A stretch of 28,285 bases of DNA from a virus (lineage: Duplodnaviria > Heunggongvirae > Uroviricota > Caudoviricetes), in the IMG/VR virus record IMGVR_UViG_2850761752_000007; one strand, 5' to 3'. The position numbers are program-made. Numbering within the stretch: the first letter of the stretch is position 1; each line of letters opens with the position of its first letter. This document shows, piece after piece, positions 15,001 to 21,000 of the stretch.

Positions 15001-18000
15001 CGGCAAACTGATTACCACGGGATTCGGTGATCGCAACGCTGCGCAGCAGTCCGGGCGGCAGGTTATATTTTTCCTCCAGTTGAGACAGTTTCGGTTGCAG
15101 CCAGCCTAACAGGGCTTCCCCGGTCTTCGTCGGTCGCTGGCGGTTTTGCATGGCATTACCGAGTTTTTCCTGCGTCGCACGCATACCCTGTAGCCAGGAT
15201 TCACCGAAGGCTGCTTCCCTCCCGGTTGCCTGAGAAGCCTGAGTATCCAGCATGCCCTGCTGCCATACTGTGGGTGATTGTGCCCGGGTGATGTTGCCAG
15301 GCTTTTCTCCGACATCCAGTTTTGTCTGATACGTCTCCATCTCTTTCTTATTGAAAAAGAAAGTCCCGTCTGAAGCCCAGAAAAAACCATGTGAATCCAG
15401 CCAGTCCTTATTTTCCCTGCCAACAATGGATGTCAGTAATCCGTCAACAACCGGGTAAAGCGCCGTTATCGCAAAAAGAAGGCCTCCGGGGCCACTGAGG
15501 GCTTTTGTCAGCCCCCGCACCCATGACGCCACTTTCAGCCCGATCAGCGTAATAATGACATTCTGCCAGCCCCCCAGTTCTCCGGCAGCCTTATTCGCCA
15601 GGGAGGCCACTGACTCAACGTCATTCAGAAATGTGGTGATAAACCTGTTCACTTCCTCCGGATGTTGCTGCATCCAGTCACCGAGTGTCTCCAGCCAGTG
15701 GCTGAGCTTCAGCGCGTACGGCATCAACGCGGTGCTAATCGTCATCCCGATGCCGGACCAGGTCTGATCGAGCTCAACAAGCTCTTTTCGTAGCTTACGG
15801 GCCAGCGCTGTACGCCCCGGCGTAACCTGCGAACGGGAAGTAAATTCGTCCACATCTTTCAGCGCATGACCGGAGCCAAGAAACTGCTGTCCGGCATAAC
15901 TGAAGCCCAGCGCGTTGCCGTAGGCAGTTTGTTCGGACTTTGTCAGTCGCGGAAAAATAACCGCCAGCTTGCGCATGATGGCTTCAGTGCTGTCAGTATT
16001 TAAATCAACACTAATGCCCGCCCTGGCTGCAACCTGAAACAAATCCTGTAACACAGGATCAAAGGACCTTCCGGCTCTGAAGGCCGCTTTTGCATTTGCA
16101 AGCCGGGAAAATGCCCCAGACATTTCCCCTTCATCAACATTATTTGCCCGCGCAGCCCGTAACCATCCGTCCAGATTTCTGGCCTTCATGCCAAAAGCAT
16201 CGGATTCCACGGACAGACGGTTCAGATCACGGGCAAAACCTGTTACCAGGTTCTTCAGCCCCCCCAGCGTCAGACTGACACCCGCAAGAGCCAGAATCTC
16301 GCTACGGATCCCTGAAAAAAAACGGGACGCCCGTTTCCCGGCATCTTCCATTCGACGGGCCGTTTTATCAGCATCTTTTCCGGTTTTTTCCAGTGATTCA
16401 CTGGTTTTCTTCTGTCCCTGACTGAATGTGTCAGCGACACCTTCCATCACCGTCGTGAGCCGGTTAAGGGCAGCATGTACTGCCTGTTCCCCGGCAGTAA
16501 AGTCCCTGTCATCAATCCCGAGGGACAGAACAAGCTCATCAAGTACCTGCGCCATTTCTGTTCTCCTGTATCACCTGTTCGTTATGGGCATCCACATGAA
16601 TTATTTCCAGCAGATCCCATAAGTCCTGCACACCAAGGACAGAATCCAGTTCAGCTTTTGAAGCCTTACCGGAGGAGATAACGGTCGCAATGGTACGGGG
16701 AACATTAACGTAATCCACCACCCCGAACGGTCTGTCGGGGTCGAGATAACGCGGGGGGATATCTAGCTGACGACGGTAGCGAAAAAATCCACATGCAGCT
16801 TAAAGACCTCCGCACGCAGATTAAGACGGGTAATGATTTCTTCAATATCCTCTTCAACAAGCGGTCTCCGGATGCTGCGTTTTTTCGGATCGGGAACAAA
16901 CTGCACACAGTCCATCATGAGGTGTACTGGCAATAGCGGACACTACCATTTGTTCTTTTTTTAAGCAGCCATCTGATGATATTTTTCCCTGAAGGCTGCC
17001 GGGGAGATATTCCCCAGACGAGAGTGACGACGCTGACGATTGTAGAAAATCTCAATGTATTCCCGTATTACTGAGATGGCTTCATCCCGGTTATTAAAAC
17101 GATAGTGGCTCAGGCTCTCATTTTTCAGCGTTCCCCAGAAGCTTTCCATCGGAGCGTTGTCGTAACAGTGACCTTTACGCGACATTGATGTTTTCAGACC
17201 AGACTGCTCCTGTATGACCCGGTAATCGTATGCGCAGTACTGTGAACCTCGATCAGAGTGGTGGATTAGCCCGGCAGGTGGGCGCTGGCTCCTGAGCGCC
17301 ATAAACAGGGCTTTACCTGTCAGCTCTTTTGTCATGCGCTCTCCCATGGCGTAGCCGACAATTTCGCACGTATAAACATCTTTGATGCCAGCGAGGTACA
17401 ACCATCCCTCCTGTGTGGCAACATACGTCAGGTCCGCCACCCAGACCTGATTTGGTGCTGTAGGAGCGAACGTCTGGTTCAGCAGATTTGGCGCAACTGG
17501 CAGATTGTGGTTCGGGTTCGTAGTCGCTCTGAACTTGCGTTTCTGCTTACAGCGTAGCCTTAGCTCCTTACGAAGACGTGCCAGTCGGTCACGACCAACG
17601 ATGATGCCATTCTCTGCCAGCTCCGTCTGGAGCCGCCGGGTTCCATATGTTTCGCGAGTGCGGATATGTGCCACCTTAATATCCAGTTTTAGCCGCTCAT
17701 CACTTTGTTTTCTGTCTGAGGGTTCATGCTGTACCCAGTTGTAATAACCGCTCCTGGATACACCAAATACCTGACACATCGCTTCAATGGGAAATTGTTG
17801 TCGCCATTGTTCGATTAACGCGTATTTTTCAGCGACTCCTGTGCAAAATACGCTGTTGCTTTTTTTAATATATCTCGCTCAAGGCGAGCTTCATTTAACG
17901 CCTTACGCAGTTGCAGAATTTCAGATTCCAGTTCAGCCACCGTGCGGGAACCAGGAGTACCGAGCCCTTTTCTGGCGGCGGTAACCCATTGTCCTAAAGT

Positions 18001-21000
18001 GCCTTCAGGAAGGGATAATCGGGAAGCGCCTTCACTGATCGAAAGTTGATTTTCAAGAACCGTTCTGACAGCTTCGGCTTTGAACTCTTTAGAGTAACGT
18101 TGGTTTTTTCTGCTCATTATTAGCTCCTTCTGATGCCATTCTATTTCAGGAAGGAGTGTCCGTTAAACTCAGGCTACCTCAGCCTGAGGGCAGGTGTAAA
18201 ACAATAATCAAGCATGGGGTTCATATCCATAGCTCCATTTTTATTTTAAGGAAAGCAACTGCTCTACGGTCATGTTTTTAATTGCGCCCCGGTTTACAAG
18301 AGTCCAGCCCTGTTTTTCCAGATAAAACCGGAAAGTCTCCAGGGTACAGACCAGTGCGCCATCAGGAACGGTTTCGGTGAATTCGACATTGCCGAATTTG
18401 TCGAAGTGAACAACCAGAGTGCGACCATCACCCGGAATCATCTTGTCAGCAGGTGGGGTGTTATTCTGGCGCAGTTCGGCCTCCATGCGGTCGAACTCAG
18501 CAATGTAGGCTTCCTTGAATGTGGCGGCTTTTTTGCCCGTGAAGCCCATCACCAGGAAAACGAAGCCGTTTTTGGTGATTTGGTAGGCGTTATAAGAATT
18601 GCCGCGGTGTTCGAATTTAACCCGCGAAAAGTTGCTGGTTAAAAATAGTTCAGAACATTCGAAGGATTCTATTTTTTGAACAACATGGTGATGCTGCTTG
18701 CCAAAAAACTCAGCAATCGAAATAGAAGTAGTGACGGCGCGACCATTTTCGATGGTTACGTCAGGGTGAGAAAGGGTAGTAGCCATAATGACATCCTCAA
18801 GTGATAAGTTAATTAACTCACCAGCAGAGGTGCTAATCTCATGGGTGGTGAGACGCACAGGGTTAGCACTACCGGTCACTCGAGAACCCGGCCAGCCTTG
18901 CGGCTGCCCCGCACGCCTCACCATAATTTGAATGTGGCTGTGCATTACGCATAAAAAAACCGCTTCAGCGCGGTTATGCGCTCGAGTAACTTTCGGGGTG
19001 CTAATCCCGGCACCCGTTTTATGAGGTGCAGGTGCACTATAATTCCACCCGTTCTGGTTTTCAATAGCTACATTCAACATTTTCTCTTTCCTTTCATCAC
19101 CGAAGTGAATTTTGTGATGCGGTGCCTAGTGCCTCCAGGTGACGTTAACCAGTTAACAATTACAGTCGGCTTTCCCACCCAAACCAATAAGGACTAACAT
19201 GACTTTTAACTGTGCCGCGTGCGCTTAGCCGCATTCACCGCATCACAAAATTCACTTTAAAAAGGGCGGACATCAGCCAGCAATTAAACCGATGCCGCCA
19301 ACTGGTACTTCACACAGCAATGTCGTTATTTACAACCGGAAGCGCACTCCCACCATTTAAATTTCACAGACAAGACCGACTCTTTATGAATACCGGAAAT
19401 GCGCCTTCGTGTTGTGCCCGGTTTTATTTCACCACCTCCGGGCTTTGGTGGCCTCGGCTATGAGGTAGCCTGAGTTTAACGGACACTCCTTCCTGAAATA
19501 GAATGGCATCAGAAGGAGCTAATAATGAGCAGAAAAAACCAACGTTACTCTAAAGAGTTCAAAGCCGAAGCTGTCAGAACGGTTCTTGAAAATCAACTTT
19601 CGATCAGTGAAGGCGCTTCCCGATTATCCCTTCCTGAAGGCACTTTAGGACAATGGGTTACCGCCGCCAGAAAAGGGCTCGGTACTCCTGGTTCCCGCAC
19701 GGTGGCTGAACTGGAATCTGAAATTCTGCAACTGCGTAAGGCGTTAAATGAAGCTCGCCTTGAGCGAGATATATTAAAAAAAGCAACAGCGTATTTTGCA
19801 CAGGAGTCGCTGAAAAATACGCGTTAATCGAACAATGGCGACAACAATTTCCCATTGAAGCGATGTGTCAGGTATTTGGTGTATCCAGGAGCGGTTATTA
19901 CAACTGGGTACAGCATGAACCCTCAGACAGAAAACAAAGTGATGAGCGGCTAAAACTGGAGATTAAGGTGGCACATATCCGCACTCGCGAAACATATGGA
20001 ACCCGGCGGCTCCAGACGGAGCTGGCAGAGAATGGCATCATCGTTGGTCGTGACCGACTGGCACGTCTTCGTAAGGAGCTAAGGCTACGCTGTAAGCAGA
20101 AACGCAAGTTCAGAGCGACTACGAACCCGAACCACAATCTGCCAGTTGCGCCAAATCTGCTGAACCAGACGTTCGCTCCTACAGCACCAAATCAGGTCTG
20201 GGTGGCGGACCTGACGTATGTTGCCACACAGGAGGGATGGTTGTACCTCGCTGGCATCAAAGATGTTTATACGTGCGAAATTGTCGGCTACGCCATGGGA
20301 GAGCGCATGACAAAAGAGCTGACAGGTAAAGCCCTGTTTATGGCGCTCAGGAGCCAGCGCCCACCTGCCGGGCTAATCCACCACTCTGATCGAGGTTCAC
20401 AGTACTGCGCATACGATTACCGGGTCATACAGGAGCAGTCTGGTCTGAAAACATCAATGTCGCGTAAAGGTCACTGTTACGACAACGCTCCGATGGAAAG
20501 CTTCTGGGGAACGCTGAAAAATGAGAGCCTGAGCCACTATCGTTTTAATAACCGGGATGAAGCCATCTCAGTAATACGGGAATACATTGAGATTTTCTAC
20601 AATCGTCAGCGTCGTCACTCTCGTCTGGGGAATATCTCCCCGGCAGCCTTCAGGGAAAAATATCATCAGATGGCTGCTTAAAAAAAGAACAAATGGTAGT
20701 GTCCGCTATTGCCAGTACACCTCACTATACCTCTACAGCGAGAATATTGAATTAATCCAATAAATGGATTAGCTGGTATTTTTGGCAAGCCAGCGACGTG
20801 CGCCAGCTTCGGTTTTAAACGTTTTGCTTTTGGTATACGTCATGGCGGTGAATGTGCCGTCCTGATTGGGAAACACGCCACACACTAGGGATTCGTTGTT
20901 GCCAAGATCGATAGTATCCATGCTGACCTCATTTCCCCTTAACGCCGGGGTAGTGGAACTGTTTGCTGAGAACACCGTGCGGTGTCTTGATGAATGAAAC

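Follow-up and report, generated by a model that had tools for sequence, protein, structure and literature searches.

The stretch of DNA analyzed in this study (the window; IMG/VR virus record IMGVR_UViG_2850761752_000007, 28,285 nucleotides [nt]) is a lambdoid prophage of the contractile-tail type in an advanced state of decay; it carries an ipaH effector gene and originates from Shigella boydii ATCC 8700. A repeat search and a self-BLAST located four copies of the insertion sequence (IS) IS600 in the window, and this work concerns the joints that these copies form with the prophage genes around them. The IS600 copies and the IS1 and IS911 elements near them are as follows.

6067-7327, + strand: IS600 copy 1, 1261 bp, inside the prophage tail-fibre N-terminal-domain gene
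16918-18181, - strand: IS600 copy 2, 1264 bp, a recombinant copy
19461-20724, + strand: IS600 copy 3, 1264 bp, a simple insertion
22315-24340, + strand: IS911 copy, which holds the nested IS1 copy A
23420-24187: IS1 copy A, inverted relative to IS1 copy B
25261-26523, + strand: IS600 copy 4, 1263 bp, the reciprocal recombinant
26805-27572, - strand: IS1 copy B, refined bounds
from 27911: second IS911

The ends of IS600 were identical in all copies, which are 1261-1264 bp long with the terminal inverted repeats TGAGG...CCTCA, and the identity among the copies was at least 99.7% over 1.26 kb. Copies 2 and 3 form inverted arms of 1264 nt each with one mismatch and a spacer of 1279 nt. In both of them orfA (100 amino acids) and orfB (272 amino acids) are joined across the slippery run TTAAAAAAAG by a -1 frameshift, in the manner of the IS3 family, and the names IS600, IS1 and IS911 are those given by RefSeq to homologous elements. 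The slippery run consists of six A residues (A6) in copies 1 (6370-6385) and 4 (25570-25585), whereas it has seven (A7) in copies 2 and 3. The A6 run puts orfB beyond the reach of a -1 slip, so that copies 1 and 4 may be either transposase-dead or affected by homopolymer sequencing errors; the A6/A7 run varies erratically at the same site among other assemblies.

All flanks are given in the orientation of the IS. Copy 1 is flanked on both sides by TTG (6064-6066 and 7328-7330) and copy 3 on both sides by CTA (19458-19460 and 20725-20727). Copy 2 has GGC at its left end and TGA at its right end, copy 4 has GAT at its left end and GGC at its right end, and no duplication was obtained for copy 2 or 4 under any boundary shift. 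The empty site of copy 1 was seen directly in the uninterrupted tail-fibre gene of Escherichia coli O121 201805972 (L001): placed on this gene, the two flanks share exactly 3 bp. That of copy 3 was found in six IMG/VR contigs (L028-L033), which read ...GGCCTCGGCTATACCTCTAC... with a single CTA. It was not found in E. coli complete genomes, in which the relatives hold a different module of about 550 bp at this place, and two exact-pattern scans of the GTDB species representatives returned nothing. Since empty sites exist, the duplications at copies 1 and 3 are not due to chance. Together with the GGC insertion described below, a target duplication of 3 bp was upheld for three independent insertions (TTG, CTA and GGC), each compared with its empty site. 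As for the other elements, IS1 copy A has a perfect 9-bp duplication (CAGCGAGGC) on both sides, no 9-bp duplication was present at IS1 copy B when its flanks (ccgattcca and ccattgctg) were compared, and no 3-bp duplication was present at the IS911 copy at 22315-24340 (acc/cat).

An initial annotation of the window, made from the sequence alone, had given the duplications TTG and CTA to copies 1 and 3 and none to IS600 copies 2 and 4 or to copy B of IS1, and the flanks read here are as it stated. It had also described copies 2 and 3 as inverted and flanking a 1.28-kb segment, which agrees with the 1279 nt measured between them. Its proposal that these three elements without duplication are rearrangement junctions is borne out, and refinement of the boundaries brought no duplication to light at copies 2 and 4.

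Exchange of flanks between IS600 copies 2 and 4

The features that bear on the origin of copies 2 and 4 are the following.

16763-16917, - strand: 3' fragment of a tail assembly chaperone gene (last 52 codons), cut by IS600; window 13505-16918 aligns to positions 36314-32900 of the related prophage L003
18182-25260: inverted segment of 7,079 bp (7.08 kb), which includes copy 3
18182-18230, - strand: 5' part of ydaE (49 nt), with one GGC copy at 18182-18184; window 18182 corresponds to position 21270 of L001, whose ydaE is at 21222-21509
25072-25260, + strand: class II holin gene without its last 27 nt, cut by IS600 (Pfam Phage_holin_2_1, E = 1.8e-33)
26524-26765, + strand: 3' part of ydaE, which begins with the second GGC copy and is 8.3 kb from the 5' part

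The triplet GGC, which is present both at the left-end flank of copy 2 and at the right-end flank of copy 4, is nt 47-49 of ydaE. When the reverse complement of 18182-19460 was joined to 26527-26803 with one GGC removed, the product gave a single alignment of 99.7% identity with the rha-ydaE region of three E. coli genomes, and a base-level check agreed with this result. One GGC duplication is therefore split between copy 2 and copy 4. The exchange of flanks was thus read directly from the sequence, and copies 2 and 4 are the reciprocal products of one recombination between two IS600 copies that inverted 18182-25260; they are not independent deletion scars.

Consistent with this result, both arrangements of the segment were observed directly in other genomes. 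Loci were found by exact lookup of the 63-amino acid truncated holin and of the Rha protein, and were then scored for unique marker segments and for IS600 flanks. The un-inverted form (isomer II) was detected in at least seven complete Shigella genomes (L006-L008, L011, L012, L021 and L024), where the order is int'-IS1-ydaE'-IS600-rha-IS600 (CTA)-DUF1391-cI-cro-ydaT-IS911::IS1-tRNAs-holin'-IS600-chaperone'-tape measure, the first IS600 having the flanks TCAGGC-IS600-GGCAGA and the last the flanks GAAGAT-IS600-TGATGG. Two of its carriers, FDAARGOS_714 and 64-5500 (named in PMC9455713), are Shigella flexneri strains of serotype 6. The form of the window (isomer I) was detected in three loci (L010, L013 and L015; records CP026731.1, CP182558.1 and JWSL02000004.1). 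Positions 12241-28285 of the window had 0 mismatches over the 16 kb compared with CP026731.1, which is the chromosome of S. boydii ATCC 8700 (PMC9430107). All four IS-flank junctions were identical between isomers I and II and only their pairing differed, which fits a crossover within 1.26 kb of DNA that is at least 99.7% identical. Judged from the sequences, isomer II must be the older state, because the insertion in ydaE keeps its GGC duplication there and the gene order is collinear with that of an intact prophage.

A third form (isomer III) was present in one contig, L027 (IMGVR_UViG_2636415858_000002), which is about 99.97% identical to the window. In this contig the unit of copy 2, rha and copy 3 is reversed relative to both flanks, and the hybrid flanks TCAGGC-IS-CTATAC and CGGCTA-IS-TGATGG were read. 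It is exactly the isomer expected from the initial annotation, in which recombination between copies 2 and 3 was said to be able to flip the Rha segment. In S. boydii 602068 (L014; CP049285, named in PMC7545283), the hybrid flanks GCTTTG-IS-CTATAC were found and everything between copies 1 and 3 is deleted.

Further variants were observed in the same survey. An IS1-adjacent loss of ydaE and its IS600 was noted in CP026766, and more scrambled orders were noted in S. boydii Sb227 and in the IMG/VR contig L028. The search for an E. coli genome with the same chaperone-IS600 junction found none.

Intervals missing from the prophage and alternative explanations

L003 is the near-complete prophage of E. 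coli FDAARGOS_943 (NZ_CP065615.1, 826000-872500), and its order is int, xis, recE, ydaE, rha, immunity, replication, Q region, tRNAs, holin, lysis, terminase, portal, head, neck, sheath, tube, chaperone, tape measure, baseplate, fibres and ipaH3. The un-inverted order of the window is collinear with it, and undoing the inversion restores the normal lambdoid order. Comparison of the two gave the following joints.

25260 to 16917 across IS600: L003 17765 to 32900; missing 17766-32899, which is 15,134 bp including the IS600 of L003 itself and about 13.9 kb of phage DNA
22315-24340 (IS911::IS1 A): L003 8184-16845; 8.66 kb missing with replication, nin and Q-region genes
IS1 copy B: ydaE-proximal DNA joined to an integrase fragment; the window integrase differs from that of L003
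about 9846-13504 (IS2/IS66-family cluster): L003 36315-39700; baseplate hub, spike and J genes replaced

At IS600 the missing 13.9 kb begins with the final 27 nt of the holin gene, continues through lysozyme, Rz, terminase, portal, the head genes, neck, sheath (phrog_205) and tube, and ends with the initial 249 nt of the chaperone gene. The holin gene of L003 is at 17577-17792, and window 25260 corresponds to its position 17765, which leaves a window holin of 63 amino acids after truncation by IS600. On the other side, the full chaperone gene of L003 (32651-33055) matched PHROGs phrog_1932, tail assembly chaperone, with E = 3e-59; the truncated tail gene gave no match in a Pfam search. The gene had been called a tail chaperone in the initial annotation, and this name holds. 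The true deletion joint is holin'-IS600-chaperone', which is undisturbed in the un-inverted genomes. The retained DNA starts with GAT at one edge and with TGA at the other, and L003 has each triplet once at the corresponding place; this fits two earlier direct IS600 insertions that later recombined. In the IS2/IS66-family cluster, an IS2 fragment (orfA and a truncated orfB) and an IS66-family element (tnpA, tnpB and tnpC, - strand) were recognized.

The following course of events best explains the present locus. Three simple IS600 insertions placed copy 1 in the tail-fibre gene with duplication of TTG, copy 3 between the DUF1391 gene and the DicF-like/C4/rha module with duplication of CTA, and a copy designated X in codon 16 of ydaE with duplication of GGC. 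A copy designated Y, with the flanks GAT and TGA, lay between the truncated holin and the truncated tail-chaperone genes, where about 13.9 kb is missing, most likely through recombination between two direct IS600 copies. As X and Y were mutually inverted, homologous recombination between them, presumably of the RecA type, then flipped 7.08 kb and turned them into the present copies 2 and 4, which brought rha beside the tail genes and parted the two halves of ydaE. This process goes on in the relatives, where recombination of copies 2 and 3 turns over the 1.28-kb Rha segment and that of copies 1 and 3 removes 13.4 kb.

This account of simple insertions, a deletion at the joint of Y and a 7.08-kb inversion between X and Y is regarded with high confidence, and several points weigh against it. 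Of the 11 variable columns among the IS600 copies, only one is informative for the position of the crossover, and this is the A6/A7 homopolymer, possibly a sequencing error. No precursor with two IS600 copies at the Y joint has survived, so that two insertions followed by recombination would be the probable route to the deletion, and isomer III is known from a single contig only. Finally, btsS, on the left flank, and ybhA-modCBA, which relatives have on the far side of the integrase, do not lie side by side in E. coli K-12; at least one joint at the locus therefore reflects a larger chromosomal event.

The reading of the initial annotation, in which copies 2 and 4 would be separate deletion scars and the Rha-chaperone joint would mark the loss of all that lay between early region and tail, has in its favour that neither copy has a target duplication and that the head genes are absent. 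However, an intact ydaE is rebuilt when the GGC flanks of copies 2 and 4 are joined, rha lies on the same strand as the tail genes and hence in the wrong orientation for a simple deletion, and genomes with the reciprocal arrangement exist, which makes this reading highly improbable. At copy 2, the joint between rha and the chaperone gene arose by inversion, as the ydaE halves are split and copies 2 and 4 have exchanged flanks. The claimed loss of the head and early-tail region was correct insofar as the head and proximal tail genes are gone, but it had been mapped to the Rha-chaperone joint and belongs to the holin-chaperone joint; the comparison with an intact related prophage that had been suggested was carried out with L003, and it fixed the missing interval at 17766-32899. 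An inversion made by the transposase would also give inverted copies with exchanged flanks, if one IS600 underwent intramolecular replicative transposition and produced the second copy in the same step. Such an event predicts the same new 3-bp target at both joints and a contiguous target, whereas GAT and TGA were found here, about 15 kb apart in L003, and the un-inverted genomes already hold both copies. IS3-family elements move by a copy-out, paste-in circle and not by cointegrates. The probability of a transposase-made inversion is accordingly considered negligible. An assembly artefact of the repeated IS copies comes to mind since repeats of 1.26 kb are hard to assemble and isomer III was seen in one contig; nevertheless, isomers I and II recur in several independent complete genomes and the window matches CP026731.1 without a mismatch from 12241 to 28285, so that this explanation, too, is scarcely credible.

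For the holin'-IS600-chaperone' joint itself, an internal deletion is likely, because the genes are ordered and oriented as in one phage and the change in the chromosomal surroundings can be located near window 5900-6000, within the shared tail-fibre gene. The joint might instead have arisen by IS600 recombination between two prophages at distant sites, within a large chromosomal inversion, with the 7-kb inversion following later. Its reciprocal joint would then read ...GGATGAAATGA followed by the left end of IS600, and the right end of IS600 followed by GATAAGCGTAAGG... (the 3' end of the holin gene). The flanking of the remnant by btsS and ybhA-modCBA, the 100% identity of the holin-tRNA module with that of the siphovirus-type prophage L002 and the presence of related ipaH prophages at several loci speak for this origin. 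On the other hand, without the inversion the genes follow exactly the order and orientation of one prophage, L003, where a holin of this type is joined to this tail, and the context switch has its alternative place in the tail-fibre gene; an origin from two prophages is thus unlikely. With regard to present activity, it is very unlikely that the nested IS600 blocks (7.08 kb and 1.28 kb) flip often within one strain as a reversible switch. If they did, the transcription of the C4, isrK and DicF-like RNAs and of the Rha antirepressor, or that of the phage tRNAs, would change relative to the cI/cro promoters, and subpopulations would differ in the regulation of the prophage remnant or of cell division.

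Genes of the inverted block and the ends of the window

The remaining features in and beside the inverted block are listed below.

18241-18783, - strand: Rha-family regulator/antirepressor gene (Pfam Phage_pRha, E = 7.5e-26; name from RefSeq; public annotation 18241-19080)
18841-18928, - strand: C4 antisense RNA, directly upstream of rha (Rfam 78.6 bits, gathering threshold 45)
18953-19029, - strand: isrK-like RNA, directly upstream of rha (Rfam 68.5 bits, gathering threshold 50)
19264-19314, - strand: weak DicF-like hairpin with terminator (Rfam DicF, RF00039, 28.6 bits, threshold 48)
20769-22241: immunity region, which aligns to L001, L003 and L004; a DUF1391 gene lies within it on the - strand
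21124-21531, - strand: cI-like repressor gene
21608-21835, + strand: cro-like gene
21819-22241, + strand: ydaT
24469-24779, + strand: phage tRNA cluster (CAU, Arg, Thr, Gly)
27573-27910: integrase N-terminal fragment, joined by IS1 copy B to ydaE-proximal DNA and cut by IS911 at 27911

Both C4 and isrK scored above their Rfam thresholds and stand upstream of an antirepressor-type gene, as in a C4/isrK module. The public 279-amino acid 'Rha' open reading frame (ORF) spans these RNA genes (18784-19080, - strand), over which its N-terminal part matches Pfam Phage_ASH, and the Rha domain proper begins at an internal ATG at 18783. The first 100 codons or so of the annotated 'Rha' are thus probably RNA genes read as protein. 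DicF was tried as the identity of the third RNA and rejected, since its score is below the threshold; the terminator hairpin is kept and the 5' part has diverged. The hairpin falls at the dicF position of Qin-type prophages, and 'DicF-like' is a loose resemblance. The segment between copies 2 and 3 had been named Rha/DicF-like in the initial annotation; its solid RNA matches are C4 and isrK.

A composite transposon of IS600, rha and IS600 was also considered and rejected, as copy 2 is flanked on its outer side by TGA and copy 3 by CTA, with no shared duplication, and copy 3 has its own duplication and empty site. ARAGORN reported the first phage tRNA (24469-24545, + strand) as Met (CAU), and RefSeq has tRNA-Ile for the gene of identical sequence in relatives, so that a lysidine-modified tRNA of the ileX type is presumed. 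In relatives the C-terminal part of the integrase follows the N-terminal fragment and is next to ybhA-modCBA.

At the left end, ipaH (2499-4141, + strand) is split into ORFs of 100 and 447 amino acids by a single C missing from a C-run (alignment column 282) in comparison with the intact 547-amino acid gene of S. boydii 602068, which may reflect either a pseudogene or a homopolymer error. Between a methyltransferase gene and ipaH, Rfam detected the Shigella small RNA CssrB (228.9 bits; 2192-2371, - strand) and IS009 (128.2 bits; 1233-1452, - strand). Window 1-5995 is contiguous, at 99.1% identity, with the btsS-adjacent ipaHe prophage of enteroinvasive E. coli (EIEC) CFSAN029787, which has a lambda-like tail, and near 5900-6000 the window switches to the contractile-tail module. 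The distance in K-12 between the genes of the left flank (btsS) and the right flank (ybhA-modCBA) may be explained by either a larger chromosomal rearrangement or a prophage hybrid.

Comparison with known systems

The closest counterparts of the window are the ipaH3 prophage of FDAARGOS_943 and its decayed copy in EIEC O121 201805972, which have the same order and 98-99.9% identity across the tail, tape-measure, holin-tRNA, ydaE and ipaH modules. Compared with the FDAARGOS_943 prophage, the window is without about 13.9 kb of late genes, 8.7 kb from replication to Q, the baseplate genes and the xis-recE region. For the rha module, the window has the allele of L001 and L002 (99.7%) and not that of L003 (87%).

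The invertible tail-fibre segments of phages (Gin, Cin, Pin and Hin) are similar in that a block flanked by inverted repeats is found in two orientations among strains. A site-specific switch of this kind was considered for the window and rejected, as no invertase gene lies in or beside 18182-25260, where the genes are rha, DUF1391, cI, cro, ydaT, IS transposases, tRNAs and holin. In contrast to those segments, short crossover sites are also absent, the repeats are whole IS elements of 1.26 kb, and the block is an immunity region instead of tail-fibre exons.

The Shigella virulence plasmid pINV is shaped by recombination between IS elements, and intramolecular events remove or rearrange its segments (PMC5629016). 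The resemblance lies in intramolecular events between IS copies that drop or rearrange DNA; pINV is a plasmid, on which they are tied to the loss of a costly secretion system, whereas the locus described here is chromosomal.

In summary, rearrangement of this kind, driven by IS elements, is already well known in Shigella and the locus reveals no new mechanism, and a description of this specific polymorphism was not found in the literature. The locus offers a worked example, at the base level, of how high-copy IS elements dismantle and reshuffle Shigella prophages: three simple insertions, one deletion, two nested inversions and one further deletion can all be recovered from public genomes at one locus. 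It is of practical value in assembly checking and in typing S. boydii and S. flexneri 6 by their IS elements, and it cautions that an IS copy without target duplication may mark the partner of an inversion rather than a deletion.

Between S. flexneri 5b 8401 and 2a 301, six inversions were reported, one of which was attributed to IS600 (PMC1550401). The IS-mediated inversions and deletions of Shigella share with the present locus the use of inverted high-copy IS elements as portable homology, the bounding of inversions by IS copies and the deletions that result from direct copies. Unlike those inversions, the one described here is small (7 kb) and nested in one prophage remnant, and a target duplication and a gene that are both split, together with the presence of both isomers, prove it at the base level.

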